Assembly (NCBI GenBank): GCA_965240325.2
Contig: OZ251225.1
Location: 3,906,001 to 3,970,000, forward strand
Length of the DNA: 64,000 nucleotides
Direction: 5' to 3'
From: Rebecca billardiae RCC1528
Lineage: Eukaryota > Protista > Haptophyta
Part shown: positions 4,553 to 61,900 of the stretch, in pieces
Numbering within the stretch: the stretch's first letter is position 1
How the letters are laid out: every line of letters starts with the position of its first letter
Made by a program: the position numbers and the translations under genes
The notes under the pieces: model-generated
Seen by the model: the letters and a program-made list of their open reading frames with translations, nothing else
Databases searched by the model: none
Told to the model about the DNA's origin: nothing

Positions 4553-5665
4553 CAAGGGTAGTAAGGGTGAGCAACTCCGCTGGCGACAGCCGCGAAGGTC
4601 GGCAGCCCTCTGTTTGCCGCGAGCGGAGCGGAGCGAGTACTATCAGCGGCGGAGGGCGCTGAGGCCGCGCACGGCGTGAGGCGCGGCGTCGGCCGAGTCG
4701 GTCCGCGGAGGATGCGCGGCTCTCGGCCCGCTGCGCAGCGGCAGTGCGCCTCACTTTGCCCCGAGCGCCGTCCTCCGCGTCGCCTCCTTCCCGCCTTGGA
4801 GCAGCACGCATGTGCGCGCCGCCACCTTGAAGGCGGCACGGGCTTGCTCAGACAACCGCGCGCGCGTGGCGCGCGACTTGGTCGGCTGCGCGCGCGCGCC
4901 GCTGCGGTGCAAGGTAGCGCCGCCGCATGCGCGCGCCGTGCCAGCGCGAGAGCGTGTGCGCGGACCTGAGTGCGACCTCACACACATGTCGAATGCTGCT
5001 TGGCATCCGACTTGCGGACTGACGGGAAGCTGGAAAAGACAGCGGCGTGAGTGTTGGTACCATCGATGCGGAGCCTTAGCGTCCACTTGCATTCGTGCTA
5101 GGAAGGAATAGACAAGACTAGGCCTTCGTCCTGGGTATCCAATGTCACTCAACACCTCGCTGATCGACCCGACGAGTGCCAGCGTGAGGCACAGCAAACC
5201 ATGGCGTGTGAGCAAGCAGACAAGTGAGCACTACGCTTACGAGATGGCCGTGAGTGAAGGCTCGCGCGGGCACGGCGCGCGCATGCGGCGGCGCTACCTT
5301 GCACCGCGGCGGCGCGCGCGCGCAGCCGACCAAGTCGCGCGCCACGCGCGTGCGGTCGTCTGAGCAAGCCTGTGCCGCCTTCAAGGTGGCGGCGCGCACA
5401 TGCGTGCTGCTCCAAGGCGGGAAGGAGGCGACGCGGAGGACGGCGCTCGGGGCAAAGTGAGGCGCACTGCCGCTGCGCAGCGGGCCGAGCGCCGCGCATC
5501 CTCCGCGGGCCGACTCGGCCGACGCCGCGCCTCACGCCGTGCGCGGCCTCAGCGCCCTCCGCCGCTGATAGTACTCGCTCCGCTCCGCTCGCCGCTCGCG
5601 GCAAACAGAGGGCTCCCGACCTTCGCGGCTGTCGCCAGCGGAGTTGCTCACCCTTACTACCCTTG
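4553..5665. mobile_element. Non-autonomous foldback DNA transposon, P-superfamily-like (family A)
   Basis: ~400-bp TIRs with termini CAAGGGTAGTAAGGG...CCCTTACTACCCTTG; 7-bp TSD GTGGGAG at 4546-4552 and 5666-5672; second copy at 24128-25342. Confidence 0.9.
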
Positions 5666-5736
5666 GTGGGAGGAGCCACTCCGACTGGACCAGGCGGAGG
5701 AGGTGGTTACAGACGGAAAAGTCCGTTGTGACAAGA

Positions 5737-23025: not shown

Positions 23026-25396
23026 CAAGGGCGGTAAGGGCTGTCAACTCCTGACCAGTGGCGCCGAGTGGCGGAGGTTCCGTGCCCCTCAACTCGTGCG
23101 GCCTCGCGGCGCAGCGGCGAAGTCTCCTGGGGCGCCGCCCTGGAGGGCGCGTGGGGTGCGCACGCCGCGGGCTCCTGCGCCCGCGGCAGCGGCCGCGGAC
23201 ACGGCGCGCGTGGTTGGTCGCCTGCTAGACAGCACGTAGTACCCTCCCACGCCGCGCGCCGCGCTTGCCGGTGCCCTCGCCGTGCCTCAGGCCAGCCGCG
23301 CACGCGCGCCGCGCCAATGGCCAGCCGTGGCCACGAGCCAGCCGCCGGCGCGCGCGCGGTGCGCGGTGCGGTCGGCGCGGGTCGGGCGCGCGCCCGGGGC
23401 GAGGCTCGCGTATGATGGGCGCGCGTCATGCCGCCTCGCGCCGCCACCCACGAGCTTGATCACGTTGCACGCGGCTGCTGAAGAGTGCTCGTCGAGCATT
23501 CCTCGGCCATCAGAAATGAGCTTGGATAAGTGGTTGTGAGCGCATCAGTGCGACGAACGCGGGCACTCGGGGACTTGCTTGCCATGACATGAGGCTGGCC
23601 GTGCACATATTAGTGGTCTGCGCTTGTCTATCACGCGTCGCTGCCGTCCCATGATCGTCTCAACGTGAGCATTTTCAAACATGGCAATGCACACTCGACA
23701 GCATGTAAACGCGTGCGCGCCGACCCATGCGGGCGTCAGCGCGGCGGCGCGAGGCGGCATGCCGCGCGCCCATCATACGCGAGCCTCGCCCCGGGCGCGC
23801 GCCCGACCCGCGCCGACCGCACCGCGCACCGCGCGCGCGCCGGCGGCTGGCTCGTGGCCACGGCTGGCCATTGGCGCGGCGCGCGTGCGCGGCTGGCCTG
23901 AGGCGCGGCGAGGGCACCGGCGAGCGCGGCGCGCGGCGTGGGAGGGTACTACGTGCTGTCTAGCAGGCGACCAACCACGCGCGCCGTGTCCGCGGCCGCT
24001 GCCGCGGGCGCAGGAGCCCGCGGCGTGCGCACCCCACGCGCCCTCCAGGGCGGCGCCCCAGGAGACTTAGCCGCTGCGCCGCGCGGCCGCACGAGTTGAG
24101 GGGCCCCCAACACTCCCTTGCCCCAACCAAGGGTAGTAAGGGTGAGCAACTCCGCTGGCGACAGCCGCGGAGGTCGGGAGGGCTCTGTTTGCCTCGGCGC
24201 CCGGTGCGAGCGGAGCGGAGCGAGTACTATCAGCGGCGGAGGGCGCTGAGGCCGCGCACGGCGTGAGGCGCGGCGTCGGCCGAGTCGGTCCGCGGAGGAT
24301 GCGCGGCTCTTGGCCCGCTGCGCAGCGGCAGTGCACCTCACTTTGCTCCAAGCGCCGTCCTCCGCGTCGCCTTCTTCCCGCCTTGGAGCAGCACGCATGT
24401 GCGCGCCGCCGCATCGAATGCGGCACGGGCTTGCTCAGACGACCGCGCGCGCGTGGCGCGCGACTTGGTCGACCGCACGCGCGCGCTGCCGCGGGGCAAG
24501 GTAGCGCCACCGTATACGCGCGCCGTGCCCGCGCGAGCCTTTGCTCACGGCCATCTCATGAGCGTAGTGCTCGCTTGTCTGTTGCTCTCACGAATGTTTC
24601 GCTGTGCCTCACGCCGACGCTCGTCGGGTCGATCAGCGACTCATGAGCGTAGTGCTCGCTTGTCTGTTGCTCTCACGAATGTTTCGCTGTGCCTCACGCC
24701 GACGCTCGTCGGGTCGATCAGCGAGGTGTTGAGTGACATTGGATACCCAGGACGAAGGCCTAGTCTTGTGTATCCCTTCTCAGCACGAACGCAAGCGGAC
24801 GCTAAGGCTCCGCATCGATGGTACTAACACTCACGCTGCTGTCTTCTCTAGCTTACTTCAGTTGCCAGCACTGTGCTGCGCAGACAGCACTCTTGACATG
24901 TGTGTGAGCTCGCACTCACGTCCATGCACACGCTCTCGCGCGGGCACGGCGCGTATGCGGTGGCGCTACATTGCACCGCGGCAGCACGCGCGCGCAGCCG
25001 ACCAAGTCGCGCGCCACGCGCGCGCGGTCGTCTGAGCAAGCCTGTGCCGCATTCGATGCGGCGGCGCGCACATGCGTGCTGCTCCAAGGCGGGAAGGAGG
25101 CGACGAGGAGGACGGCGCTCGGGGCAAAGTGAGGTGCACTGCCGCTGCGCAGCGGGCCGAGCGCCGCGCATCCTCCGCGGACCGACTCGGCCGACGCCGC
25201 GCCTCACGCCGTGCGCGGCCTCAGCGCCCTCCGCCGCTGATAGTACTCGCTCCGCTCCGCTCGCACCGGGCGCCGAGGCAAACAGAGCCCTCCCGACCTC
25301 CGCGGCTGTCGCCAGCGGAGTTGCTCACCCTTACTACCCTTGCCCCAACCTCCGCCACTCGACGCCACTGGGAGTTGACAGCCCTTACCGCCCTTG
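23026..25396. mobile_element. P-like foldback element (family B) with family A nested in its right TIR
   Basis: Termini CAAGGGCGGTAAGGGCTGTCAACTCC...GGAGTTGACAGCCCTTACCGCCCTTG; 7-bp TSD GTCGGAG at 23019-23025 and 25397-25403; ~420-bp arms. Confidence 0.9.
24128..25342. mobile_element. Family A P-like foldback, second copy, core inverted relative to 4553-5665
   Basis: Same CAAGGGTAGTAAGGG termini; 7-bp TSD CCCCAAC at 24121-24127 and 25343-25349; internal ~85-bp tandem duplication near 24556-24724. Confidence 0.9.
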
Positions 25397-27576
25397 GTCG
25401 GAGCCGGAGGGGGCGCGGCGCCCGCGCGGCGTGTGCGGCCCGCGTTTGCACGCCGCGGCTGCGGCGACAGGAGCTCAGGAGGCGCCAGCCAAGAGCGACC
25501 GACGGGTGAGGACGGCGATGGGCAGGTGCGCGCGGCGAGTGGCGCCTGGAGCGCGCGGCTGCGGCGGGTCCCGACTGCCGTCGACATCGCGTTCGTGCCC
25601 CCGCTCACTCCGCGCGCCCCCGCCGCCCCGTGTCGATGCCTGCGCGCGGCCGCGCGCCCGGTCGCCGGGGCGCCCGGCGGCCGCGCCGCGGCAGCCGCCC
25701 TGTATTCGGGCTCTCGCAAGCTCGGGGGCAGCGGCGCCTGATGCCGGACTGATCGATCTCTGAGTCTTCGACTTCACCACGCGCCGCCCTTGCCATGCCT
25801 TTCCGGGGAGCGCCGACGATCCGCGAGTCCATCCATCGTCGACGGTCGACTCTGAGCGAGGGCTACGCCTCGGAACTGAACGGTACTCTACGAGGAGGAC
25901 GAGCTGCGCGGGCGACGGTGGTGCGTGACGTCCCCAGAGCTGGCTGTGCCTCTGCAACGCGTGCCGAGCCTGATCGAGGTGTGTCAGCCCGTGCACGCGC
26001 GGCGTGCGCGAACGATCCGTGACTGGACACTGGTGCCCGCTCGCACCTCCGACCTCGGCACCGTGCTCCCTCGGGCTGTCAGCTCCGCGTGGCCTGGCGT
26101 GCACGTAGAGTTGCGCTCATGCGTCGATCACGCCTCGCGCCCGCCTGTCGGCCGTCGCGCAGGCGCTGGTCGAACCCTACTCGGACCAGTGCAAATCATC
26201 TACTACTATCCTGGCGCTGCCGGTGCGCGGTGACCCGCGGCGGACAGCGCCAGGCAGCGGTCAGTCAGCAGCAGCGGCCCGAACGAATCCGCGGCCCCGC
26301 ACCGTGCTCCCTGGCTGTCAGCTTCGCGTGGCCTGGCGTGCACGTGGAGTCGCGCTCATGCGTCGATCACGCCTCGTCGCATCCGCCTGTACACAATCGG
26401 CGCCGCGCCGGCGGCTGCGAAGTGCGATGGGCCCGCGCCCGGCGCGGCGGGCGGCGGCGCGCCGCTGGAGTCTAGTTGTACGGGCATGCAACTCCGGGTC
26501 TGTCAATAGACGACTGCGATGGAGGGTGCACCGCCACCGCGGGCCCTGAACTACGTTCGTTCTACGGAAAAGGACCGCGGAACGCGGTCATATAGTCGTC
26601 GATCCGCGATCGATGATCGTCGTCGTCACATATATATATGACCGCGTTCCGCGGTCCTTTTCCGTAGAACGAACGTAGTTCAGGGCCCGCGGTGGCGGTG
26701 CACCCTCCATCGCAGTCGTCTATTGACAGACCCGGAGTTGCATGCCCGTACAACTAGACTCCAGCGGCGCGCCGCCGCCCGCCGCGCCCGGGGCGCGGGC
26801 CCATCGGCGCACTTCGCACTCGCAGCCGCCGGCGCGGCGCCGATTGTGCAGGCGGATGCGACGAGGCGTGATCGACGCATGAGCGCGACTCCACGTGCAC
26901 GCCAGGCCACGCGAAGCTGACAGCCAGGGAGCACGGTGCGGGGCCGCGGATTCGTTCGGGCCGCTGCTGCTGACTGACCGCTGTCCCGCCGCGGGTCACC
27001 GCGCACCGCGGCAGCGCCAGGATAGTTAGATGATTTGCACTGGTCCGAGTAGGGTTCGACCAGCGCCTGCGCGACGGCCGACAGGCGGGCGCGAGGCGTG
27101 ATCGACGCATGAGCGCAACTCGACGTGCACGCCAGGCCACGCGGAGCTGACAGCCCGCGAGGGAGCACGGTGCCGAGGTCGGAGGTGCGACTGGGCATCA
27201 GTCACGGATCGTTCGCGCACGCCGCGCGTGCACGGGCTGACACACCTCGATCAGGCTCGGCACGCGTTGCAGAGGCACAGCCAGCTCTGGGGACGTCACG
27301 CACCACCGTCGCCCGCGCAGCTCGTCCTCCTCGTAGAGTACCGTTCAGTTCCGAGGCGTAGCCCTCGCTCAGAGTCGACCGTCGACGATGGACTCGGATC
27401 GTCGGCGCTCCCCGGAAAGGCATGGCAAGGGCGGCGCGTGGTGAAGTCGAAGACTCAGAGATCGATCAGTCCGGCATCAGGCGCCGCTGCCCCCGAGCTT
27501 GCGAGAGGACCCGTTGCACGGGTGAGTGACCGTAGGGCGGTGAAAATGCGACGTACTCACGTACCGGTGAAAATAC

Positions 27577-28773
27577 CAGGGGCTGGTGCTCGCAGCGAGG
27601 CACTCGCGGTGCGAGTGCGAGCAGGGCGCGAGCGCGAGTGCGAGCAGGGCACTCGCACTCGCGCTCGCAAGGCGCCGATCCGGCCCAGCGGGCTTGCGAG
27701 TCAACTCGCAAAGGTACTCGCAAGGTGCGGTCTAGCGCGAGTATGCGAGTTGGCGCGAGCAGAAGTGCGAGTCCCTGGGCGGCCTCGTGACCGCCTGCAC
27801 GGCAGGCGAGTCACAAAGCGTCAAAGCCTCGCTGCCCCCGCCCAGGGCGGCAAATGGCGAGCTCATCGGCGGCGCCGGTCGCTTCGGCGCCTGCGTCGGC
27901 GCCGGCTGCCGAGATCACCGTCTGGTCGCTGTCGAACCAGCGCGGGGTGATCGACCCGGCCTGGCTCGATCTGCCCCCCAACGGCAAAGGTGTCTCGCTC
28001 TTGTGGACGCACGTCCACCCCATCTCGCAAGCGGCGCCGACCGACTTCTCGTACGTTCAGGTGGGCAGTCAGTCGAGCAACCCGAAGCTGTACACGCACG
28101 TGTGCGTCATGCCGGGATGCGGCCAGCGCTTCACGCTCCCCCTCGACAAGGTGCGCTCGAAGGGGGGCAAGTCGGTCTTCACGATCACAAACGCGGGCAA
28201 CCACCTGAAGACGATGCACCCGCTGACCGAGTACAGCAAGAAGGCCTCCATCAAGGCGGACGAGGCAGCGCTGGGGGCGAAGCGGACCATGCAGCAGGTG
28301 GGCATGTCGGTGAGTATGCCCGTCGAGAAGCAGCTCAAGCAATCGGGCCTCCTCGCTGCGGGCTTCAAGAAGGTGTCGCGCGCCGACAAACAGCTGGCGA
28401 CGCAGGCGCGGTGGCAGGGTGGTCAGGGCGGCGGGTCGGGTGTAAGGCATGCTCTAATAGGGCCAAATAGGGCCAAACATTTTCTTCGCCTCAGGCCGGC
28501 GGGGCCCCGGGGGAGGCCCCCCGGACCCCCCGCTGGGCGTGTCCGGGGGCTGCGCCCCCGGACACGTTGCCAGTTGGGACTCGCACTTTGCGAGTTGGGA
28601 CTCGCACTTTGCGAGTTGGGACTCGCACTTTACTCGCACTCGCACTCGCAGCCGCCCATTCCGCCCAGTGGGCCTGCGAGTTCAACTCGCAGTGCACTCG
28701 CAAAGTCCCCTCAAAAGTGCGAGTGCGAGTTCACTCTACTCGCAGCCGCGGAAAGTGCGAGCGACGGTCCCTG
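27577..28773 (+). mobile_element. Internally deleted hAT element
   Basis: CAGGG...CCCTG imperfect TIRs; 8-bp TSD GAAAATAC at 27569-27576 and 28774-28781; dense subterminal ACTCGCA/TGCGAGT motifs at both ends. Confidence 0.88.
27854..28415 (+). pseudogene. Truncated hAT transposase N-terminus (BED zinc finger)
   Basis: W...HVCVMPGCGQRF...TITNAGNHLKTMHP fits a BED-type C2H2 finger; the frame runs into terminal repeat DNA after QARWQ with no DDE domain. Confidence 0.75.
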
Positions 28774-29952
28774 GAAAATACGGTTTTGCAACTAGCGCTG
28801 GGCGATGGCGGCCGGGCGCGACGAACCGAGCGGATTGGTGCACGGGGAATCCAATTCCCCGTGCACCAATCCAATCCGTTCGTCGCCAGGTGGTGCCGTT
28901 GCCGAGATCGAGCTGCAAAACCCTCAGCAGGTGGTCAAGAGAAGCCAAACGGGGAGGGCTGTCACAACGCGCGCGCCGCGGTGGGAAGAGAGAAGGACTT
29001 GCCTCCCAACTGCAGCTTTGGCAGCGTTCCCTCTTGCGGCAGTGGAAGCCGACGACGAGGAGGATGACGACGCAACTGCTGACGACTGCTGCGAAGCAGC
29101 AGCGGTGACACTCTGCGGTGCACAGCTGCCACCGCGCGCGCCGCGCGACCGCGGACTCGGGTCGGATGGCGACAGCAGCACCGAGCAGTCCTCATGAAGA
29201 CGATGAAGCTGCGTGCACGGGTGCGCGAGGTGACAGGCGAAGCGCGCCGACGACACAGCACTTGACACGCCTGAGCGCACGCCCATGCTCGCTGAGCGCG
29301 AGCGCTGCAAGTGCAACTACAGTGCGCGCCGCGCTGCAAGTGGATGCAGGCTGTACTGCGGCGCTGCGTCCGCGGTCATCGTCTCTTCACTACTTGTCGA
29401 CTGCTGCTGCGGCGGGCCGGGGGCACTACCCGGCACGCGCGGCGTAGCGCGCTAAACGGAATGTGATGGTAGACGCACTGTCACGCTCCCGCCGCCGCCG
29501 CCGCCGCCGGCAAGACTATCGTCACTCTAGGCCGCAGAAGTGTCGTTTTTTCGGCGCTCACGCTTGCAACGGGTCAGAGCCCGAATACAGGGCGGCTGCC
29601 GCGGCGCGGCCGCGGGGCGCCGCGGCGCCGACCGGCGCGCGGCCGCGCGCAGGCATCGACACGGGGCGGCGGGGGCGCGCGGAGTGAGCGGGGGCACGAA
29701 CGCGATGTCGACGGCAGTCGGGACCCGCCGCAGCCGCGCGCTCCAGGCGCAACTCGCCGCGCGCACCTGCCCATCGCCGTCCTCACCCGTCGGTCGCTCG
29801 TCAGCTCGCCTCATCCTCTCGCGGTCTCGCCGCAGCCGTGGCGTAGAAAACGCGGGCCCGCGCGCCCCGGCTCCCGCTCCGGTGTCAGATAGTATTGAGA
29901 TTCGCCGAGGTTGGCCCATCGGCTACTGACCCTTGCCTCGTCGGCTCCTGAT

Positions 29953-30798
29953 GACCAGTTGCACGCGTGAGCGCCGAAAAAACGACACTTTGGCAGTGAT
30001 AGTCACCGTCGCCGCCTCGGGCATACCGCTGCCGCCGGCAGCAGCGGCAGCGGGAGCGTGGCAGCGGATCTACCACCTTCTGCGTTACACGCTGCGTCGT
30101 GCGCGCCAGGTGGCAGGTGTCCCCTGTCTGCCGCGCGGAAGGCAGCGGTCGGCGAGCGCAGAGGTGAGAAGGAAGGCGCGCACGCATCGTGAGAGCTTCA
30201 GCAGCTTGCCCACGCGCTTCACGTAGGCGGTGTGGTTGCGTGCGCACGCCTTCTGTACCCGTACACGCGATCGCAGCGTGAGCCACTCCAGCCTGCCTGC
30301 GCATCGCGGGCCGAGCCGCCGGCGCCTCGTCTCCTGAATCCTCGTTCACGAGGACAGCACGTGTATGTATCCGTGGCGCGCTCGCTGCCGATGGCGGCTC
30401 CCCGTGTCGAGGGCGTTTGGCTGGAGCCGCATCCAGGGCATATATCGTCACGGTCCCACCCGATGCTGACGCTGAGGTGGCGCGCTTGCCGAAGGCAGGA
30501 GCATTGGCTGATGCCTTCTGCATTGGCCACCTCTGCGCGACCGCGCGTTCACGCTGCCGGCGCGCGGGCGGCGTCGCTTGGTGGGCACCTGCCTTGGGTT
30601 TTGTCGTTCGTTCTCAGCGACGGTTGGGTCGATTGACATGCCGATTGGATTGGGGCATTGCGAATCGGCTTCGCAATGCCCCATTCCGCTCGGATCGGCG
30701 CGGGCGTCAGCCATGCGGCAGCGCGAGTGACAAAACCGACATTTCATACGCATGTCGTTTTTTCATACGCTCACGGTTACTCACCCGTGCAACGGGTC
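29953..30798. mobile_element. GAC-ended TIR element (copy 2, opposite orientation)
   Basis: GACCAGTTGCACGCGTGAGCGCCGAAAAAACGACAC...CTCACCCGTGCAACGGGTC; 4-bp TSD TGAT at 29949-29952 and 30799-30802. Confidence 0.85.
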
Positions 30799-31644
30799 TG
30801 ATACAGACACGGCGCGATTGAATAGTTGATTCAACTGATTCAAGGGACGTACATGGTCACATCGGTTCGCGGCAATCTCTATCTAGATACGTCATCGCTC
30901 CTTGGACCTTGCTGCAATCTCATTGGCCGGAAAAACCACTTGTAACGGTTCGTTACGTTAGGGATCCTACTAAGGGCGTGAAGTTTTTTGGACGGGCGTC
31001 ACTCCACGCTTTACCGTATGAACTTGTCGTGGGCGCGACCTTTTTCGGCCGTGATGCGTGTTAGAGAGGGTCTCAAAATTCGAAACTCGGTCTCCTCCAG
31101 CAGCCATGAAAATCGTCCCCCGTCCCTTTTTTCTTGATCAAAGATCTTTTTGAAACGTTGTTCGGGCCCGCTGGTGCGGGCTCCACGCTGCGCGCTCCGC
31201 CCTGCACCGCGGGCCATAACTCTTATTTGCTGCGCGCATTGACGAACTAATATATAAATTATATATTATTATTAGTAGTAACTATAGCAGCGCAGCTGCT
31301 ATACTCATCGCCGCGCGTTTACCGACTCCCGACACGGGCGACAATCGGACTGGCCTCACGCCACCTCCGACCTCGGGCGAGCCGGCTACGTGCCGTACCG
31401 TGTCTAGTCACCGGGCGCGCGGCCCTTCTTACTTCTCTGTTCGGCTCACACAGACACAGAGCCCTACTAGGCCCCGGCGTGCGGGCCACGCGACAGTCTC
31501 ACAGTAGACGGATGCTCCCTCCCCGAGACGGAGACATCGGCATGCACCTTGCAGCTGTTGTCAGCACTGACGACTCCGGTGCTGCCATGTCCGCCGAGTC
31601 CTTGGCCCTCATCGTCGTCGCCATTTGCGCAAGGCGTCCGCGCA

Positions 31645-32070: not shown

Positions 32071-34892
32071 ATGAGCGCGCCGGGCGGCGAGACCGTCGCG
32101 CAGAAGCGCGCCAACGCGGAGCAGTGGGCGCGGTACTATGCGGCGCAGGGGAACGTGCAGGAGCAGCGCAACTCGGAGCAGTGGGCGCGGTACTACGCGG
32201 CGCAGGAGGCGCAGCAGCAGCCGCCGCCGCAGCCGCAGCCGCAGCCGCAGCCGCAGCCGCACTGGGGCAGTCTGCCTGTCGCGCCCGCGCAGCCGCACGC
32301 GGGCGCGCAGCAGCAGGCGTTCGCCCCGGCGCAGCCCGCGCCGCGCGCGCAGTTCCCCGTGAGCACCGGCCGCGCGCACGAGAACCACACCACGCCGCAG
32401 GGCGCGTGGCCCCACCTCGGCGCGCAGCCGCACGCGGCCGCGCCGCAGCCGCCGTCGGCGGCCGCGGCCGGCGGCCTGCCGTCGGCGATCGCCGCGGCGG
32501 CGCAGCGCTCGTGGGAGCAGGTGCTGCGCACGGCGGGCGCAGGCGGCGCGCCCACACCCGCGCCGCACGCCGCGCGCGCGCCGCCGCCGCTCGGCCCGAA
32601 CGCGTGCGCGCGCGCGGGCGGCGTCGGCCCGGCGGCGCCGTATGGCGGCGCGCCCGCGCCGCCCGCCGTGCCCGCCGCGCCGCACTACGCGGCCGCGCCG
32701 CCCGCGCCGCCCGCGCCGCCGGGCGCGGGCGCGTCCGCCCCGCCCGCCCGCGCGTGGCCGCCCTCGCTCAAGGCGTACGTCGAGCGCGCCTTCGGGGCCT
32801 GCAGCAGCGAGGCTGAGCGCGCGCTCACAGAGACGCACCTCAAGCGGCTGATCGCGGCCACGGGCGCGGACGGCACGCTGTGGGCGAGGGTGCGCGCGGG
32901 GCGCGGGCGGCGGGCGTGCGCGCGCGGGGGGCGGCGCGGGCGTGGGCTCGCGTGCGCGCCGCGAGCGCGCGCACGCCGCCCACGCCGCGCGCTCGCGCCG
33001 CCCGCCCCGCGTGTGCGTGCGCCGTGTGCGTGCGTGTGCATGTGTGTGCGTGTGCAATGTGCGTGTGCAATGTGCGTGTGCGGGCAATGTGCGTGTGCGT
33101 GTGCGTGTGCGTGCGTGTGCGTGTGTGCAGGACTGGAACTCGGAGCCGCTGCCTCGGCTCACGCCGGCGGCGAAGGCGGAGGGCGGCGGGCCGTACGCGG
33201 GGCACCACGAGGACGAGGGCTCGCGCAAGCGCACGCGCGAGGACGGGGGCATCGGCTGGGGCGGGTACGCGCAGCAGCCGCAGCAGCAGGGGCTGGCGGC
33301 TGACGCGATGCGCGCCGCGCGCGAGCTGGCGTGCGCGTCCGCCGCGGCCCTGTCCTCGCGCACGGGCGCGCACGCGTACGCCGGCGCGTACGCCGCGTGC
33401 GCGCACGGCTGCGCGTACGGCGGCGGGCCGGGCGCCGAGCCGGCGGGCGGAGGCGGCGGCGCGCGCGCTGGCCTGAGGCTGGACCCGGAGGTGGAGCGCC
33501 GCTCGCGGAGGGCGGCGCGCTTCGAGGCGGGCTCGGGCGCGCAGCACAGCCGGCGGCGCGTGGTGGGCGCCTCGTCGCTCGCCGCCGCCGCCGCCGCCGC
33601 GCTCCGCGCGCGCGCGCCCACCGAGGCCGCCGCCGCCAACGCCGAGCTCGAGCTCGACTTCACCGTGCGTGGCACCTCGGCCGCGCTTGAGAAGCCGTAC
33701 CTGCGGCTCACGTCTGCGCCAGACCCGGAGTCTGTGCGGCCCGAGCCCGCGCTGCGCCGCTCGTTTGCGCACGTGCAGGCGCGCGTGCGCGGCGGCGAGG
33801 AGGGGGGCGAGCCGCCTCCGTACATCTGGGTGTGGGAGCAGCTCAAGAGCATCAGGCAGGACCTGACGGTGCAGCACATCCGCAACGACTTCACTGTGCA
33901 GGGTGCGCGCTGCGTGCGCGCGCGCGCCCGGCGGGCTGCGCGCGGCAGGGCAGCGCGAGAGCGAGGGCGCGCACGCGCCGCCGTGCCGCCCACCCTCGCC
34001 CGCTGCCCCCGCGTGCCCGCGTGCGCCAGTGTACGAGTACCACGCGCGGCACTGCCTGGCGCACGCGGACCTGGGCGAGTTCAACGCGTGCCAGAGCGTG
34101 CTGCACGCGCTGCACGCGGAGGGGCTGGGCGACGCGCACGGCGCACCCGAGTTCATCGCCTACTCGGTGCTGTACGCGGTGGCGACCAGCCAGGACACGG
34201 CGGAGGTGACGCACCGGCTGCAGGCGCTGAGCGCGGACGCGCGCGCGCACCCGTTCGTGGCGCACGCGATGGCGGTGCGCGAGGCTGCGACCAGCGGCAA
34301 CTACGTCGCCCTCTTCCGGCTGCGGGGGCGCGCGCCCAACTGCGGAGGGCTGCTGATGGATGCGTTCGCGGAGCGCGCGCGCGTGCACGCGCTGCGCGTC
34401 GCGTGCCGCGCGTACGCGCCAGACGTGCCCGTCGCGCACCTCGCGCGCGCCCTCGGCTTTGGCCCGGCCGAGGGCGCGCGCGCGGACGGCGCGGGCGGCG
34501 CGGACGGCGCGGACGGCGCAGAGTGGGACGCGGACGCGGTGGCGGACGCGGTGGCGGACGCGGTGGCGGACGCGGCCTTCTTCTGCGAGGACCACGGCGC
34601 GGTGCTGCGCGAGCGCGGCGCGCCCTCGACGCCTCGCACGCCCGCCGCCGCCGGGGCCTCCGCCTTCCCCTTCCCCGACGACGCGCCGCCCGCCGCGCGC
34701 GAGCGCGAGCGCGAGCGCGCCGCGGCCGAGCACGCGGCCGCGGCGGCGCCGGCCGCGGCCGCGTGCTCGCTCGTCGTCGACTGCAAGGCGTCGCGCGGCT
34801 GCCTGGTCGAGCACTCGCTCGCGGACGCGGCGGAGGCGGAGGCGCGCGAGGCGGCGCGGCTCGCTGCGATCCAGCGCATCACGTTTGACTGA
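32071..34892 (+). CDS. SAC3/GANP/THP3-family protein (LENG8-like), three exons
   Basis: [48 protein letters not shown] and DLGEFNACQSVL; phase-compatible introns at 32890-33130 and 33903-34029. Confidence 0.9.
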
Positions 34893-36012
34893 GCTGGGCG
34901 CGGCCGCGCACCCGCCGCCGCCGGCCGGCCGGCCGGCCGCGCACGCCGCCGGCCGAGCCGGCCGGAGGGCCGCGCGCGCCCGGCGCGTGCGCGGAGGCGC
35001 GTGCGCGCTCGGCTCCGCGCCGCAGCGCCGCGCCCGCCAGTTGTTTGCGCGTGTGCGGGCGAGCGCGCCGCCGCCGCGCGCGCGCGCCCCCCATCCGCGC
35101 CCCTCCCGCGCGCGCGCCGCCGCGTCCGCCGCCGGCGCACTGCGCGGCACCGCCGCTCCCACCTCCGCCCAGCGCGCCGCCGGCGCCGGCCGCCGCCGAG
35201 ATACCGCCCGAGATACCGCCCGCGCACACCCAGCCACCGGCGCGGGCGCACCGCCGGCGCGGCTCTGCAGGGCGAGCCCCCTCGCCGCCGCTGCCGAGCG
35301 GCTGCCGCGCGGCTCCGCCGCTCGCGCCCATCCCGCCATCCGCGCCGCCCCCCCGCTCTCGCCCCGCACGCCGCACGCGGCACTCCACAGCGGCGGCGCC
35401 GCTCCTCCGCTGCCCCGCCGCTGCTGCTGCTGCTGCCCCGCGCTCCGCCGCTCACGTCGCGCAGCGGCCGCACCGCGGGCACGTCGGCGGCTCGGTCGGG
35501 CGCGCGGAGCGTGATCGGCGCGGGGCCGGGCGCGGCTGCGTGGCTCCGCGAGTGTTGGGGGTGGGTCGCGCGAGTGGCGGTCTCGACAGCGGCGCCAGGT
35601 GCGGGCACGCGCGGCGCCGAGCTGGGGGGGCGCACGCGTGCTCCGTGCACACGACGTGGCCACACTGTACACACTTGCTGAGTGTACACTGTACACGGGC
35701 AGGCACACGTCCCCTTTCCAAGCCGACGATGGGCGAACGACACTGCTCCGTGGCGTTCACATGACGAGGTACGTGCCGACGCTACTGGTAGAGGGCAGCA
35801 GACGAGGCCGGAGTCCGGACTCGCTGCGTGCGACGACGGCGCGCGCATGGAACGCATGCAGTTAAGTACGCGGGCGCTGGGAGTGGCCAGTGTGAGTGGC
35901 TAGTGGCCCAGTGTGAGTGGGCCGCCTCGACAGGGCAGGCCGCGCTCGTCAGTCAGTCTCTCCGACTCCCGGTCCGAGAAGTGCCCGGTACGGGCACTGC
36001 GGCGCGATATCA

Positions 36013-38456
36013 TTAAGTAGCTGAGCCAGCACTATACCAGGTGGAGAAGTCATGTGCGTGAGTCGGCGGTCTGACGCCGGCCGCGCCTTAGACCGCTCTA
36101 CCCGGTCTCCAATTGATTTCAGGGTCAAGTTGTCGAACACACGCAACCGTACGCCCCGCGATTGGGGCTTATGGTCATTTTTGAGCCTAGACTTCTCAGC
36201 GGCTTCTTATGTTGTACCGGTTGGACGCTTGCATGCTTCCCTAATCGTGCCGAATCATCGGCGGAATCTTGGGGGCCTCCATCATCCGCAAAACGAGTTC
36301 GTCCATAGGGCTATTCAGGGTCGGTGTACTAGTTCCTCTCAACGCATTCAGGCTGCGCGGTGTGTTTGCGCTAACCTGATTGGCCCGAGGAAACCCATGT
36401 TTTCAGTTTCACCGCTGTTCTCGCCCTCGCCGCAAGCCGCTCGAGAGAGGGCGGGGCCGCAGCTGAGTCCGCTGACGAAAAGGCGGCCCGCTGCCGCGGC
36501 GCCTCACCGCCAGGCCGCCTGGCACTAGCGTGAGGGTCAAGCCAGTCTGAGCAGCTCAGCTGGGCTGAGCAGGGCATCTTGCGGCTATGCACCGACGCAC
36601 GCTTGCTGATGGCTCACGTCTGCACGGCAGCCGCTGACGCGCCGGCGGCGGGAGCCGCCGCAAAGAGGTCGGCATCGACCGTCACGACTTTGAAGCGGCG
36701 GTTGAGCGCACGCTGCTGCTCGAGGTTGCGACCGGGCGGGAAGATGTGCTCGTAGGGGTACTGCATGGCCAGATTTGTCGTGAACACGCGTGGCATGTCT
36801 GCGGGGATCTTGGCATTCGTGTAGCGCGTGTGCACCGATCGCTCGTAGTTGGGGTCGAGCATCTTGATCACGGCCTTGGCCGTCATGTGCGTGAAATCCA
36901 TGTCGTCGAAGACGATACCGTCGTTGCGAGCCGTCAAATCCTTCAGGTCGTCCATCTCGGACACGAGAAGAGGGTTCTCGAAGTGCGACAGCCCGAACTC
37001 CGTCTTGCCGTGGCCGGATCCACCTGCGAGCACGACAGCCATCCCATCAGAGAGGTCGAGCGGCAGTCGCGCAAACGAGCTCATGGCGAAGCGCGGCGTG
37101 ACGCCGCTGCCGTGTCGGTGGCGGATCATGGCGAGCACGGCATGGCCGTAGCGGTAGTAGATCGACGGGTGCTCGCACTGCAAGATGTCCGCTGCCTCGT
37201 CTGCAGACTGTGCTGCGTGCAGCGCGCGCGCCCAGTCGACGCCGCACACGTCGAGCGGCTCTGGGATGGTTGCCCAGTTGGCGCTGATGATGAAGTTGGA
37301 CGGCCCCTCCTTCTGGCAGTAGTGGATGCACTTCGCCAGGTCACGCTTCGTCGGGCCCATCGGCTCGTGGTACGCTCGCAGCGTGCCCCAGCCCTGGAGG
37401 GGGAGGTCAAAGGCTGTGACCAGGCAGTCCGTCTTCATCTCCGATCCGATGACGGCGTGGAAGTGCCAAGCGCGGCTAGGGTCGTTGGGGTGCTCGTGCG
37501 GCTCCTTGCAGACGACGAACTCCTTCTGTTTGCCCCTCAATGGCGCCAGCAAGTGTGTCGCCACTGCAGGAAGGTTGGAAAGGAGAGGATGGTTGTTGGG
37601 CACTGCAGAGATGGTCAGGTAGATGTTGCGCCGGCAAATGCGACCGCCCCGGTTGCGCAACGATGCTGCCGATGGTTGCGAGGCGAATGGCGCTGGTCGC
37701 GGCGCATTCGTGCGGGCCGACTGGCCCGAAGGGAGACCGTTGGGCATGGTGAACCCAACCGGCACTCCGACCACCACCGGGTACGCGATCGTGTGAGCCA
37801 TCGACGCTGCGTTTTGCCAGCTGCTGCCCTAGTCCACTTGTCGTCTGAAACGCTCACGATCATACACGGATGTGCGGCGGGCTTGCGGCGGGCGGGGTAC
37901 GGAAGGCCAATAGTGGCGTCGAGGGTGCCGTCTCTAGTGAATGATATGTGCCCGCCGGCCGCCGGCGTAACTAAGTAGGGACTAGCACTTCTTGACTTGG
38001 CGGAGTGGCGGACACATACAGCTTGATGCTATTGCTACTTGCATGATTATGGCCGGTCTGCCGTCGAGCGAGCGTGCGCAACTAAACTGCATAGGTAGCT
38101 CACCCACCGCCGGCCCGCCACAGACTGTACCGTACCCCACCGACAAAACCGCTTCGCCGCCCGCCCCAACCGCGCGCGCGCCGTGGAACGGCATCCATGA
38201 CCTTTTGGTTCGGAACGAGCGGACCAGAATGGAATCCGTCTCGTCTGGAGAAAGCGCTCGCTTTCAATCAAAAACTTTCGGCGGATTCGCTTTTGGACGC
38301 TCGCTGACGAGGCAGATTATCATGGACCCAAGAGGGCTTGTGGGCGCTCAGGATTCAGATAGTATGACTGCGTACCCAAGATCTTGCGTGTGCGTATGTC
38401 CGAAAAGGACATGGTTCACGTGTTCCGAGTAATCACCCACCCGCGTGTCCTTAAGT
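36013..38456. mobile_element. Putative integrated rolling-circle element or endogenous viral element (boundaries tentative)
   Basis: Visibly lower-GC island around rep, bracketed by TTAAGT at 36013-36018 and 38451-38456; no TIRs seen. Confidence 0.5.
36614..37801 (-). CDS. rep: CRESS-DNA-virus-type replication initiator (HUH endonuclease + SF3 helicase)
   Basis: RCR motif I IYLTI, motif II WHFHAVI, motif III YCQKE; Walker A GGSGHGKT, Walker B IVFDDM, motif C VFTTN, Arg finger ALNRRF; correct order, intronless, no internal stop. Confidence 0.93.
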   Translation of the reverse strand: MAHTIAYPVVVGVPVGFTMPNGLPSGQSARTNAPRPAPFASQPSAASLRNRGGRICRRNIYLTISAVPNNHPLLSNLPAVATHLLAPLRGKQKEFVVCKEPHEHPNDPSRAWHFHAVIGSEMKTDCLVTAFDLPLQGWGTLRAYHEPMGPTKRDLAKCIHYCQKEGPSNFIISANWATIPEPLDVCGVDWARALHAAQSADEAADILQCEHPSIYYRYGHAVLAMIRHRHGSGVTPRFAMSSFARLPLDLSDGMAVVLAGGSGHGKTEFGLSHFENPLLVSEMDDLKDLTARNDGIVFDDMDFTHMTAKAVIKMLDPNYERSVHTRYTNAKIPADMPRVFTTNLAMQYPYEHIFPPGRNLEQQRALNRRFKVVTVDADLFAAAPAAGASAAAVQT

Positions 38457-38623
38457 GAAAGGCGGCCCCCCGGATGGTGTTTCCCTAAAGCGCGGCTGCC
38501 GGTTCAGGCAGGGCGTGCGGCCACCTGGTAGTCGTCCGGGACGCAAGCCTTGCACGGGCTTGCAAGTTGCATGTGCCGCGCCCGCCGCCTGGCCGATCGG
38601 ACTGCTCGGAGGCGGCGCATAAT

Positions 38624-38626
<3 letters not shown>

Positions 38627-38704
<78 letters not shown>
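38627..38704. repeat. (AT)n microsatellite
   Basis: Pure AT dinucleotide run of about 78 bp. Confidence 0.97.
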
Positions 38705-38714
<10 letters not shown>

Positions 38715-39543
38715 GATAAAGTCGTCCGATAGGTAGTCTATAGCGGCGGCCGGTGGCTCGGGGCACGGTGGCACCCTCCGCGCCACGCCGGCGCCGCCGG
38801 CGCCGCCGGCCGCCCCGGGGGCCGCACCCCGGGCCCGGGGGCCGTACCGCCGCGCGGGCCGGGTGGCCGGCGCCACTGAGTAGTTCACTTAGCCCCCGGC
38901 GGGCCCCGTCACCGCACCGAGTCCACTCTGTCTCAGGCCTAGTGCCCACCCCCTGTCACTCCGCGTTACTCATCAATACGTACTCGTGGCACTCTCGGCG
39001 CCCTCCACAGGCAGGCGGCACGGCCGTGTGCCGGCAGTCCGCGCGCCCCGCGCCGTGCCGGGAGTGCTCGGCCGCGTCCGGGCGAGCCCGGAGCCGAGCA
39101 GTAGTCGGTATCGGCGACTACTCGGTCTTGGTCTCAGACCGCGAAGGGGCGGGCGATATACGAGGACCGCGGCGGCCCGCAGCAACAGCATCATGATTCA
39201 TTTGGCCGGCGCCCGAACATGAGGGCGTTGCCATCGTGTGGCGGCCGCCGGCGGGATTCATCGGTCGTCATTTACTACTACAAGAGATACATACTCTTTG
39301 ATCATTGGCCGTAAAGTACTTTACAGTACTGCTCTTATTATTCTGAGTAAACTGTACTCATTCGCCGTGAATCATTGGTCAATCTGACGACCATCTGGCG
39401 CTCAAGATCAGAGCGCGGCGGATATTAATCAACCTCGAGCTATGTAGCGCATCAACGCTCCCGAAGGAATCCTTCTCGCAAAGCCACCTTCCACGTGCGA
39501 GGTGGCGGTCGGCGTTCCGGACACGCGGCTGCCCGTCGGCGCG

Positions 39544-41467
39544 ATGCCGCAGGTCGCGCCAACCCCGGGCTCGCCCTCGCGCGCACAAGTGGTCGCGATG
39601 CGCGGCGTCGATCGCGCCGCGCCCAGCCAGGGCAACTCGCACACGACGTGCTGCGACGAGACGCGCGGCTGCCTCGGCGGCGAGATGGACGCGGCGGTGA
39701 TCTACTCCGAGTCCGGGCACGTCGCGCAGTACGACGTCGGCCGGCTGTACCGGCTGGGCTTCCTGCGATTCCTCCGCGGCACCGTCTTCGACGACCCGTT
39801 CATCTGGCTGCAGCTCCTCTTCGTGCTCGCCACTTCGGCGGCGATCGGCGTCGCCCTCGCGCTCGCGGCGGTCGAGGAGGAGACGGCGCGCGCGCACGTC
39901 GAGCGGCTGCGCATCATCTCGCTCTCGATGCAGGGTCTCTCGGCGTTCTTCCTCGGCCTCTTCGTCTCGATCGTCATCGTCACGTGGAAGGACGTGCGGT
40001 ACGGCGCCATCGGCAAGCTGTTTGGTGCAACCATCAACATTGCGACCGTCGCGGGTTACGCGTTCGCGGGCAGCTCGATGCGGCTCAAGGCGCTGCGCAT
40101 GCGCGTGATGCGCTACCTGCTGCTCGCGTTCACGCTGATGTGCATGGAGGCGCGAAATGAGGTGCGCGTCGCCGAGCTCGTCGAGGCCAAGCTCATCACC
40201 CTGGCCGAGGTGTCCATCTTGAAGGGCGTGCCGACCAAGGCGCAGGCGGTGTACGCGTGGACGGTCGCGCTCGTGCTCGGCGCGCAGGACGCGGGGCTGG
40301 GCAAGTGCCTGGGCACGGACCGCCGGCTGTTCATCGAGCAGATCTTCCGCGCGCGCGGCATGGTGGGCGACGCCCACATGTACGTCAGCAACCAGCTGCC
40401 ACTGCCGTGAGTGCCGCCACCGCCGCCGCCGTCGCCTCGCCTCGCCGCGCTGGCTGCGCCGCCGCGCGCTTGCTGACGCGCGACCCGCCCCGCCCCGCCC
40501 GCGGCGGCGCAGGTACACTGCGCTGATCGCGATCGTGGTGAAGCTCACGCTGGTCGTCGAGACGCTGCGCGGCGGCGCCGAGCTGTACGTCGCCTCCTTC
40601 GACGACCGCTGGGAGATGCTGAGCTCCGCGCTCACGCTCGTGCTTCTGTGCGTCGTGTACCAGGGCTGCCTCAACCTGCACCTGGTGCTCGACAACCCGT
40701 TCGGGCACGACACGGCGGACTTCCCGCAGTCCAAGCTGTTCCGCTCGCTCGCCTCCGCCGTGCACACGCAGCTCGCCTCGCCCACGATGGCCGCGCACAT
40801 CGCCGCGGAGATCACCGACCTGAGCTCGGCCGTCGAGCCGACGGCCACGCCGGCAGCCACCCCCGGCCGGCTGAAGAAGATGATGCCCGCCCTCTTCGAG
40901 CGGAGGCGCGCGTCGAGCGACGCGCTGTGGGAGGGGATCGCCGCGCTGGAGACCGCCGTCGAGATGAGCGCCGCCGGCGCGCAGCAGCTCTCCGACGACG
41001 ACGCCACCGCCTCCGAGCAGATTCTCGCCGTGCCGGGGCCGCAGCTCGGCTGGCCGGAGTCGATGCCGACGCCAAACCCGGCGTCGCCGCCGCGGCGGCA
41101 GCAGCGCGCGAGCCGTCCGCTCGCGCGGACGCCGAGCCGCGCGGCGCGCTTCAGCGGGGCGCGCGGTGACGGGCTGCTCCAGCCGCCCGCGGGCAGCGTC
41201 GGCGAGAGGGCTACCGACCGCGCGGACGCCGCGCCCGCCGACGCACGCGTGAGCCTCGGCAGCGACGGCAGCGACGCGGCAATCGCTAGCCTGCGGCCCC
41301 GCGCCAGCCCCGCCCAAGGCGGGAGCGGCCGCAGCCTGCGGGGGCCCGCCGCACTGCAGGCGCCGTGCGCGGAAGGCATCAGACCCGAGCGCGCGTCGGC
41401 GTCGTCGTCGTGCTGCGGCGAGTCGTCGGCGGTCGCGCCGCCCGAACCCCTACCCTCGGCCCAGTAG
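39544..41467 (+). CDS. Bestrophin-family anion channel, two exons
   Basis: Four hydrophobic segments; SAFFLGLFVSIVIVTW; QLPLP|YTALI across the intron at 40407-40512; LDNPFGHDTADFP matches the bestrophin NPFGxDxxDF loop. Confidence 0.85.
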
Positions 41468-58939: not shown

Positions 58940-61900
58940 GCGCGCGCATTATTCGTATGGCGGGCCGTAGGTCCGCCCCTTGTAGTGCCCGGGAAAAAGA
59001 TAAGAAAAAGAAAAGGAAAAAAGAAAATCGCCTCGCAAAGAAAAGAAAATCGCCTCGCTCACTGCCGGGTCGCTTCGCTCACTGGCGGGCGTCAATCTCG
59101 CCTGCCTGAGCTGTGTGCGTCTCTTATTCTTAGTAAACTGTACCGGGCGCCCTCGCAGCTCCCACTGGGGACGCTCGGCCGAAAGAGAGTCCTGGATGGC
59201 GCGGAGCGCATGGGCCGCGCGCGCCGAATCCAACGCCGGCGTGGATATCGCGCGGAGACTCCCGAGGGGGTTTTTCGCCCGATTCGCGATTGCTGCCCTC
59301 GTCGTCTCGCGTGCAGGTCGAACGGGGGCTAAATCGACGCGTTTGGAGCGGTACGCTCGGCGCGTCGACACGATCGTGAGACCTGGGGCGATCCTCGCCC
59401 GACGTGCACGTCGAAAGCTCGCACCGGCCATAGCATCATGCGCTGCGCACGATGACCGCCTCGCGCGATCCACCGTCGCGCGTCGGGCTCGGTGCGAGAA
59501 AGCCCTCATCACGAGGCGTCTCGCGGGCGGGAAGCGCCATCGCACGCGACGCAAGATTTGGCGCGGCCTTCTGAACTCGATCGCCGGAATCCGCGCACCG
59601 GACTCAGTCATTGCTCGCGGTCCGGTCCCTCAGCCGAAGCCCACGTCCGGCCTGCATGGCGTCGACGGTGACCAATGCGACGGAAGCGCAGCGCCAACGG
59701 CGTACGACGCGCAGCGGACGCACCTCCCGGGTCTGTCGCCGTGGCAGCAACCGCGTCATCGCGAGTTGGCGACCCTCGCCGCAGCGCGACACAGACAAGC
59801 CCGTGATGCCATCCGCAGAGAGATGAAACGTCGAGCATGCAACATCGCCGCGCCATGGCCTCGTCCATGGCGCAGGCGCTGCGGGACGAGGCGGAAGTCG
59901 TCACGCCGGTGACGGATGCGCTGCGATTCGTGTGCTCGCATGAGCAGCGCTTGCCCACTCTCGATCGCGAGTGGCACACGCTGTCGCTGTGCGCGCGCGC
60001 GCGCACAACCAACAGCTCCTCGTGCCGCCGAGCACGCGAGCGCCAGACCTGTCGAAGATGCGAAGAGCGACGACCGCGTTAACGTCAACGCGCTCGTGCT
60101 CAGCGTGGTGGCCGTGTACGACGTCAACGCGACCTGCGCCGAGCCCATCATGCCTGGAGCCGACATCGACAAGCATCCTCGCGACGACCGCTCTCGGCTG
60201 GCGGCAGGAGGACATGGCACATGATCTACTCTGGCGGCTTCGTCGGCGGCGAGGCGCTCGATTACGCCATCGCGGTCGACATGCGGCACATACAGCGCGT
60301 ACCCGCGCTCGCGCGGAGCAACGGGCTACCCGCCCCGCCCCGCGTGCTGCACATTCCCTCGTGGGTGTGGGCCTCGCTGATGCGCATATGATACAATACT
60401 CTAAGAGTACAGACCGTGAAACGTGTGTACATCACGTCGGGGAGCCAACTTCACGTGTCGTCACTGGTCCTTGCACTCGACTGTCCGAGGCCACTCCACC
60501 GAAATCAGCCGACGGGTAGGGGAGCCAGAAGCGTCTCGGGTAGGGGTCCCCTACCCGATCGCGCACCTCGGGTAGGGGGGGCGGAGGCTGCAGTCGCCGC
60601 GCGCCGAGGGCGTCGCTCGACGCGCACCACGGGCGTCGCTCGAGTCTGCGCGGCCCGCGCACGCGTCCTGCGGGTGCGCCCCGGCACCGTGCCTTCGCGC
60701 GCCGCTGGCTGCGCGCCTCTCCGCCGCTCACGCCGCTCGCCAATGGCCCGCGACTGCGCGTCGGCACGTTTGTCCGCTGCGGCCGACCGCGAACGCGCAC
60801 AGGCGGGCACAAGGAAGTCGGACGATGATTTGCTGTCGTGTTGTGCGCGGACCATGTGTATGTGCTCCGCCCAGCCGCGCGCGTCGGTCGCGCACGCCGA
60901 CCAAGGCGAGCTCGAGCGCGCGCGCAAGCTGGCGCTCGCGCGTTTTGGACCCATGAAGGTGCCAGCGACTCGAGCGCGCCCAAGCGTCGGTAGAGCGCGC
61001 GCCGCGCTCGCGCGAGGAGCTGTGTGGTCGCAGCTCGCCCGCACGCTTGCGCCCTGGGCGATCCGCGCCCTCGCATGCGCCAGCCGCGCGAGGCATCGGC
61101 GCGTCGCACATGCCGGCCGCGCGAGCGCGGCGCGCGCCAAGCCTGCGTGCAGCGGCCGCAGCTGGTGTGCCTCTGAGCCTCAGCTGTGTGCTAGCCTGCG
61201 CGAGGATGCGGACGGCGCGCAGGGCGTACACTTGAACGGGTAGGTTGTGTACCAGCGCGGTGGCGCACCTAAGCCTCTTCTGATCCTCGCACGTGCTTCG
61301 TCTTTGGATAGCACATCAGCAGAATCGTCACGACAGACTCCCAAGTCCGCGCTGCGTTGCTGTCGCCAGGTGAGGGTTGCGCAACCAGTCGCCACACGAC
61401 ACCACCATCGTCTCCGGCTGTCATGACGAGGACGCGTACAGCCCGGTACTGACTCGGGCGTTCAGCGCCACGCGTACTCACCTCGAATGGAGTCGCTGCG
61501 TGCGCAGTTCGGAATCAACGCCAGCGATAGCCCCGAAGGAGTGCTCTGCACAGCATCGATGCAGAATCGAGCGTGGGCGAGGAGCAACTTGGGCGCTAGG
61601 CGGCAACGACTGCGTGTTGATTGATCGACTCATGCTGCGATGAGGACTCAGTGGCAAGGGCCCTCAGCCGTTGATGTATGGCAGGCGCAGTAACGTCGGC
61701 TCAGCATGGAGCACGGGGCTTGACGTGTGACGCTTCTGAGCAGCTTTCTGTCGTGGTCGTGATTGAACCGCACTCGGTGCGGGCTGCACGGCGCATGCCG
61801 TCGCAGCGGACCGGCCTCGGCCGCGCGGCCGCCTGCCCTGGGATCGGTCGGCGGGCCCGTCGGCGCCCGCCCGCTGACTGCGGCGAGACTCTGGATGAGA

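Follow-up and report, generated by a model that had tools for sequence, protein, structure and literature searches.

The window analysed here, i.e., the whole stretch of 64,000 nucleotides, is eukaryotic nuclear DNA with 71% GC and many repeats. Its genes include a V/A-type ATPase, SAC3/GANP, bestrophin, BRCT, zf-CW and an EsV-1-7 repeat. A Rep gene is placed between the SAC3/GANP-family gene, to which it is oriented tail to tail, and the bestrophin-family gene, to which it is oriented head to head (Table 1). The preliminary description had reported this gene as an intact, intronless open reading frame with seven motifs in the expected order, flanked by two ordinary intron-bearing host genes, and it was right in these points: translation revealed neither a stop nor an intron, all motifs are at their places, and GT-AG introns are visible in both neighbours. 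A CCAAT-like box is seen upstream of Rep. From the genome composition, a haptophyte-like alga might be guessed as the host.

Table 1. Features of the Rep locus and its surroundings; positions are those of the window.
Feature	Position	Strand	Remarks
SAC3/GANP-family gene, left neighbour, with introns	32071..34892	+	introns GT-AG seen in sequence
Candidate left terminal 10-nt direct repeat, inside small hairpin (weak)	36514..36523	+	
Rep ORF (P0001), intronless, intact	36614..37801	-	395 aa; GC3 0.82
SF3 helicase domain (aa 251-380)	36662..37051	-	Z 10.3, rmsd 2.9 Å, 118 aa vs PCV2 Rep ATPase 8xms
Arginine finger (ALNRRF, aa 365-370)	36692-36709	-	
Motif C (FTTN, aa 340-343)	36773-36784	-	
Walker B (IVFDD, aa 296-300)	36902-36916	-	
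Walker A (GGSGHGKT, aa 260-267)	37001-37024	-	
Three-helix central domain, predicted oligomerisation (aa 186-232)	37106..37246	-	helices H190-196, H200-210, H212-230
Y1 HUH endonuclease domain (aa 52-178)	37268..37648	-	model pLDDT >85; Z 12.3, rmsd 2.5 Å, 106 aa vs TYLCV Rep 7vg8
GRS-like FDL segment	within 37268..37648	-	
HUH motif III (YCQK, aa 161-164)	37310-37321	-	
HUH motif II (WHFHAV, aa 112-117)	37451-37468	-	
Stretch absent from joined variant in one X1 contig	37478..37870	.	would delete start codon and codons 1-108
HUH motif I (IYLTI, aa 60-64)	37610-37624	-	
Non-coding upstream arm (promoter and, putatively, origin)	37802..38593	.	no capsid ORF, no canonical stem-loop nonanucleotide
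Candidate right terminal 10-nt direct repeat, inside hairpin with 8-bp stem (weak)	38584..38593	+	
(TA)n microsatellite adjoining candidate right end	38627..38712	.	
Bestrophin-family gene, right neighbour, one intron	39544..41467	+	intron GT-AG seen in sequence

For the encoded protein, P0001, Pfam gave no match at E ≤ 1, and phmmer none among solved structures. Among 1.84 billion representatives phmmer yielded 1,537 relatives at E ≤ 0.001, the best of them with an E value of 2e-115 and 53% identity. An AlphaFold2 model based on a 26-row alignment reached a mean pLDDT of 86, with disorder only in the first 50 and the last 9 residues. Its nuclease superimposes on the Reps of vientovirus, TYLCV and wheat dwarf virus (Z 12.0-12.5, rmsd 2.2-2.7 Å, about 107 residues; wheat dwarf virus Z 12.0), and Foldseek agrees with these structural alignments. 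The best structural matches in BFVD are unclassified CRESS and crucivirus Reps with 23-28% identity; the best structural matches among named viral Reps are less than 30% identical. Since the model aligns to geminivirus-type nucleases and to the PCV2 Rep ATPase, P0001 is a complete CRESS-type Rep. It displays the RCR motifs I, II (HUH) and III with one tyrosine, and a fused SF3 helicase with Walker A, Walker B, motif C and arginine finger. The architecture of Y1 HUH nuclease, helical domain and SF3 helicase is thus confirmed, and the earlier assignment as an HUH-SF3 Rep of the CRESS type agrees with motifs and fold alike.

The catalytic histidine and tyrosine, the Walker A lysine and the Walker B aspartate are invariant in the alignment with the 26 relatives. 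The start codon is backed by an N-terminal V-x-G-V/M-P-V motif common to three other representatives of the lineage. The central domain, to which relatives of P0001 show weak Gemini_AL1_M matches in Pfam, is predicted from its position to mediate oligomerisation. The HMM search proposed in the preliminary description would have failed, because P0001 matches no Pfam family; the lineage members P0039, P0040, P0120 and P0217 score above the cut-off for Gemini_AL1. Together with the fold of P0001 and its GRS segment, these matches uphold the claim of a geminivirus-like nuclease.

In a nuclease tree of 123 of the retrieved proteins, namely those of 280-520 aa, P0001 groups with 25 others. In the alignment of these 26 Reps (A4), identity to P0001 ranges from 25 to 53%, and the common nuclease is characterised by a long insert before motif II, the FDL segment and an aspartate preceding motif III. 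With a profile of this nuclease the 26 training rows score 92-157 bits, which is high by construction; three held-out members reach 86-94, the best outside protein 57, and 49 IMG/VR loci at most 45. These loci are the yield of viral scans seeded with lineage motifs, i.e., with short exact patterns that can miss members. Such scans returned outside viruses only, or nothing, and not one member of the lineage. Viral scans with P0001 alone, with the sub-alignment A5 or with a 20-nt hairpin pattern from contig L026 (see below) likewise returned nothing.

The IMG/VR loci look like genuine viruses: 43 of the 49 are circular, and four of 12 tested partner ORFs match capsid families. Among 12 tested Reps with the nearest helicases, eight have a circovirus-type and four a geminivirus-type nuclease. 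As the loci share the helicase with the lineage but do not exceed 45 bits on its nuclease profile, the helicase type is common to real viruses and the nuclease is not. The initial impression that the helicase resembles those of geminiviruses, genomoviruses or CRESSV6 is not supported in this form; its nearest relatives are unclassified CRESS circles with either nuclease type.

In a quick tree search with central domain and helicase (81 rows), the lineage falls on one side of a branch with an SH-aLRT of 99, and all 31 virus rows fall outside. A more careful tree of the same region, reduced to 48 rows by dropping 33 for time or long branches, places 20 of 21 lineage rows on one side at 94/89 and P0037 with the viruses; only 28% of its bootstrap trees show a single origin of the lineage. 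In the whole-Rep tree (49 rows, geminivirus-type outsiders) a branch with 91/58 support, recovered in 90% of bootstrap trees, sets off the 26 lineage rows; there P0001, P0002 and P0003 group at 100/100. In none of the three trees does a virus contig nest within the lineage. The separation is likely but not firm, because tree support is moderate and the helicase tree splits off P0037. P0001 is thus a member of an apparently undescribed and probably separate lineage, which counts at least 26 divergent Reps and is marked by its distinctive nuclease.

The residue composition of the lineage points to GC-rich DNA. The median GARP/FYMINK ratio is 1.06 in its Reps (n = 26) versus 0.78 in virus Reps (n = 31), although the rows are not independent. 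The members were found in ENA, JGI and Logan assemblies on short metagenomic contigs. The longest contigs of 63 near-full-length members measure 1,398-4,348 bp, with P0019 at the upper end and a median of 2,057 bp in collections that are short anyway; contigs of about 2 kb fit collapsed repeats and small circles equally.

One member of the lineage has a DNA context, as far as a scan of 12 of the 64 parts of the collection reached. It is P0003, 52% identical to P0001 and encoded on L026, a contig of 2,170 bp. The Rep gene is accompanied by 896 bp upstream and 191 bp downstream, the left end is GC-richer, and the upstream arm contains a long, strong hairpin at about 640-700 (z -6.2). Neither a capsid gene nor a terminal repeat was detected in L026. 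A frame on its opposite strand was discarded as a gene, as it has no match in Pfam or Atlas. Non-coding motifs common to L026 and the window are only 9-11-mers expected by chance.

Some relatives are fused to other domains. P0092 is a DnaJ protein joined to a whole lineage Rep. The P0176/P0229 family (14 members, 950-986 aa) combines an N-terminal domain with HLQ and YxxK motifs with a C-terminal central-plus-helicase module of the P0001 lineage; its N-terminus matches the Pfam family Replitron_HUH with E values of 0.05-0.07, which is below the cut-off. Both kinds of fusion could be gene-calling artefacts. A search for longer fused forms of the lineage Rep scored none, which is weak evidence.

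The region between the host genes was searched for a capsid gene, and here, too, the first impression held. From 35650 to 39543 the longest stop-to-stop frames other than Rep have just 148-167 codons; frames of 35500-36613 and 37802-38625 lack third-position codon bias; and when 123 partner ORFs, taken from virus contigs with related Reps, were run by tblastn against the window, matches fell only on Rep or its antisense. A looser phmmer run with the partner ORFs produced one upstream match of 3.8 bits, which is noise level. An ORF at 38043-38432 that resembled an Ourmia capsid (E 0.21) was rejected for its lack of codon bias and Atlas scores of 0.75. The antisense ORF 37142-37978 and the ORF 36052-36528 belong to no family and are regarded as shadows.

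The composition of the locus resembles that of the host. GC3 of Rep is 0.82 and that of host ORFs 0.84-0.95, versus 0.64 for the relative P0003; GC3 and CpG ratio of the Rep region are host-like, and the composition grades into host intergenic values. One public sequencing run, X1, contains the Rep stretch and may derive from the source sample; no RNA run was listed with it. Six of its contigs match Rep and the upstream arm, five of them at ≥99%; the only change inside the ORF is synonymous, and near-identical contigs cover 37871-37986 and 38141-38515 of the arm. The intact Rep sequence is thereby confirmed piecewise. In one X1 contig, six extra letters connect 37477 with 37871, and the short side measures just 30 letters; this variant may be a library chimera or another artefact. 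Within 35300-39500 the coverage is confined to 36671-38515. No X1 contig bridges a junction between Rep and host.

The coverage pattern of X1 prompted a search for terminal repeats. The two copies of a 10-nt direct repeat bracket a candidate unit of 2,080 bp beside the TA microsatellite. A repeat as good arose 73 times in 1000 shuffles and 63 times among 2000 random pairs of intergenic sequence, a chance rate of 3-7%, and the zones were picked after the fact. A second copy of the element or shared ends were not found in the 64-kb window, and neither a flanking retrotransposon nor a target-site duplication was seen at the locus. Rfam reported nothing above threshold; sub-threshold matches fell on the TA repeat alone. 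The Cressdnaviricota typically initiate replication at a stem-loop with a nonanucleotide. Such an origin was not found here: one site with a single mismatch, 38360-38368, lies outside a hairpin loop, and the window holds five nonanucleotide-like matches versus 3.7 expected, i.e., a chance frequency.

What, then, is this gene? A three-domain Rep with all its catalytic residues is positioned between two host genes, has no capsid gene beside it here or in L026, and stands in a lineage of its own. We tentatively consider it the core of a Rep-only, capsid-less selfish element of roughly 2 kb that would replicate by a rolling circle in GC-rich microbial eukaryotes and represent an undescribed lineage; the probability of this reading may be put at about 45%. 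Going by established Rep biochemistry and the roles of Rep motifs outlined in PMC6668415, the protein would cut a single strand of the DNA that encodes it, at an origin within the non-coding arm, and stay covalently bound via Tyr161. The helicase, as a hexameric SF3 ring, would peel off the single strand, while a host polymerase would replace it. Once the strand had been nicked again and ligated, a single-stranded circle would be set free, which might persist as a plasmid-like replicon or re-insert, by strand transfer through Rep or by host repair, in a copy-and-paste manner.

The main rival is an ordinary endogenous viral element, which we regard as a serious possibility. On this view, host repair in a recent ancestor would have captured the Rep half of a conventional CRESS virus, one with a capsid gene and from an unnamed family. 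The insert would have ceased to copy itself, yet it would still identify this eukaryote as a host of the virus lineage. Endogenous CRESS elements commonly consist of a Rep alone, loss of the capsid gene being the rule (302 Rep versus 3 capsid sequences; PMC3198968). An algal precedent is known from a diatom (PMC8613185). The nearest outside helicases reside on mostly circular virus contigs, some with capsid partners, and the contigs of the P0001 lineage also have the size of small CRESS genomes. The single copy in the window and the unconvincing termini also speak for a viral relic and, like the missing origin hairpin, against a mobile element. On the other hand, L026 lacks a capsid gene over its whole length, and none of the virus loci belongs to the lineage, although the scans behind this count relied on short exact patterns. 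The ORF is fully intact, and its GC3 is closer to that of the host than to that of P0003. The bias towards residues of GC-rich codons and the fusions to DnaJ or Replitron-like domains, cellular in appearance, differ from what those viruses show, with the reservation that the fusions may be spurious and the Replitron match insufficient.

At the level of the lineage, the capsid-less mobile element thus gains some indirect backing: nuclease profile and trees set it apart from virus contigs, though its monophyly is only moderately supported and the DNA context is that of one in about 26 members. The internally deleted form in X1, next to an intact one, is what a non-autonomous derivative would look like, a weak argument. 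Capsid-less replicons of the CRESS type have precedents in pCRESS and the plasmids of Pyropia pulchra (PMC6668415), and self-mobilisation of endogenous Reps has been proposed, though not demonstrated, in PMC3198968. A bolder version of the selfish element, which we consider rather doubtful, would add a fifth group to the HUH transposons, with P0001 as its autonomous member: a widespread, undescribed and capsid-less lineage of elements of about 2 kb in GC-rich microbial eukaryotes, with a complete CRESS-type Rep (Y1 plus SF3), which would have swapped modules with Replitrons and would link, as a living intermediate, the ssDNA viruses to the rolling-circle transposons of eukaryotes.

It is improbable that Rep is a domesticated host gene, i.e., that it was captured long ago and kept by selection as a single-copy nickase-helicase, e.g., for antiviral interference or DNA processing, with P0002 and P0003 as orthologues in related species. 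The intact frame, its GC3, the ordinary intergenic spacing, the CCAAT-like box and the tight group of the three proteins would suit such a gene, and the DnaJ fusion implies that cellular recruitment can happen. Rep is, however, intronless between two intron-bearing neighbours, and it has kept every catalytic residue of nuclease and helicase; the deleted variant in X1 is a weak further objection. That a virus genome, or a free circle carrying Rep alone, was misjoined into a host contig, as the unspanned junctions in X1 would allow, is very improbable in a window without N, with complete genes on both sides and with a composition that grades into that of the host.

Under either of the two leading readings the lineage gains a host, because Rep is here anchored to a eukaryotic chromosome, while it is otherwise met only on short metagenomic contigs. 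If the element is self-mobilising, the proposal that endogenous CRESS Reps excise and re-insert (PMC3198968) becomes testable. It would also bear on the origin of Replitrons from CRESS-like Reps, a topic of PMC10288648.

In comparison with known systems, P0001 shares the layout of Y1 HUH nuclease, central helical domain and SF3 helicase, and the GRS-like FDL segment, with those Cressdnaviricota that have a geminivirus-type nuclease (Geminiviridae, Genomoviridae, CRESSV6, unclassified forms and cruciviruses). The locus differs from them by the absence of a capsid gene, here as in L026, and of the stem-loop nonanucleotide; the capsid may have been lost or be encoded on a separate segment. The nuclease signature of the lineage is absent from the 49 virus loci, while the helicase type is common to unclassified circles of both nuclease types. 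Endogenous CRESS Reps (Liu et al. 2011, PMC3198968; the diatom EVLF, PMC8613185) are likewise chromosomal, capsid-less and located between host genes; those are degraded or fragmentary, whereas P0001 is fully intact, and no free virus of its lineage turned up in the viral scans. A geminivirus-like transposon of Tuber has separate transposase ORFs and 37-bp TIRs, of which the Rep locus has neither.

The bacterial pCRESS plasmids and those of Pyropia pulchra also lack a capsid and carry an HUH-SF3 Rep (Kazlauskas et al. 2019, PMC6668415), like the window and L026. According to the same source, pCRESS plasmids occur mainly in integrated form, flanked by direct repeats; the Rep locus, in contrast, occupies a eukaryotic nuclear site and has no integrase. 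Relatives of Rep were found neither in 72,556 plasmid records nor in phage records nor in the scanned prokaryote genomes. Replitrons (Craig 2023, PMC10288648) are described as HUH elements of eukaryotes, 2-4 kb long, that spread by copy-and-paste; their nuclease is of the Y1 type, short direct repeats mark their ends, and they occur in haptophytes. As characterised in that paper, they have HUQ in motif II, GYxxK in motif III and no helicase, where P0001 has HFH, HYCQK and SF3; in Pfam, P0001 does not match Replitron_HUH. Helitrons combine Y2 with an SF1B (Pif1-type) helicase, P0001 Y1 with SF3. The locus is, hence, not filed as a virus for want of capsid and origin, nor as a Replitron in view of its HUH motif and helicase, nor as a Helitron in view of Y1 and SF3. 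The literature, in the part covered, offered no description of the P0001 lineage or of an HUH-SF3 transposon. Endogenous Reps as such are already known; new is a deep, unnamed Rep lineage that is anchored to a eukaryotic chromosome.

Two hairpins lie 5′ of the Rep gene (at 640-700 and 517-545) in L026, the 2,170-bp contig that encodes P0003, a relative 52% identical to the Rep of the window, P0001. The larger of them far exceeds its shuffled versions (z -6.2), and the pair is a candidate origin. A counterpart was sought in the window; none was found there. Another contig, L011 from IMG/VR (4,180 bp), contains two Rep and two partner ORFs arranged in tandem, possibly a dimer or a mis-join.

Other features of the window are listed in the table. 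Pfam searches with the 542-aa ORF and with the shorter zinc-finger-like ORF gave no match. The motifs of the former we take to resemble those of a 2-oxoglutarate/Fe(II) dioxygenase; the latter, together with its surroundings, is a possible transposon remnant. The duplicated element and the 362-bp repeat pair are non-autonomous DNA transposon-like. Between the 627-bp arms, inspection by eye revealed no convincing gene.

Further coding regions and repeats in the window
Feature	Position	Strand	Remarks
Fragment of EsV-1-7 cysteine-rich repeat protein	1-625		E 9e-47
Element with ~400-bp terminal inverted repeats	4546-5670; 24123-25349		two copies
Inverted repeat pair, 362 bp	23084-24104
Near-perfect palindrome, long	26500-26730		intergenic
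ORF with Cys/His zinc-finger-like segment	27854-28795 (region 27600-28800)		GC3 0.78; flanked by degenerate repeats
Repeat family	30000-31200		many contigs of public run X1 match, 90-96% identity, loose ends
Intronless ORF, 542 aa	42781-44409	(-)	GC3 0.84
Inverted repeat, 627 bp	60512-61138; 62896-63522		99.2% identity; arms enclose 1.76 kb

Rep or its helicase module also occurs in fusions. P0092 (675 aa, on a 2,479-bp contig) combines in a single ORF a DnaJ domain, a long low-complexity linker and a whole Rep of the lineage. The polyomavirus T antigen is laid out as a J-domain plus SF3, and the order in P0092 recalls it. A second type of fusion is a metagenomic family of 950-986 aa (P0176, P0227, P0229, P0233 and P0234), encoded on contigs of at most 5,219 bp. 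Its C-terminal part is the SF3 helicase module of the P0001 lineage, fused to an N-terminal domain with HLQ and YxxK motifs that is Replitron-like, with Pfam scores (E 0.05-0.07) under the cut-off. In contrast to these proteins with their SF3 helicase, described Replitrons lack a helicase (PMC10288648).
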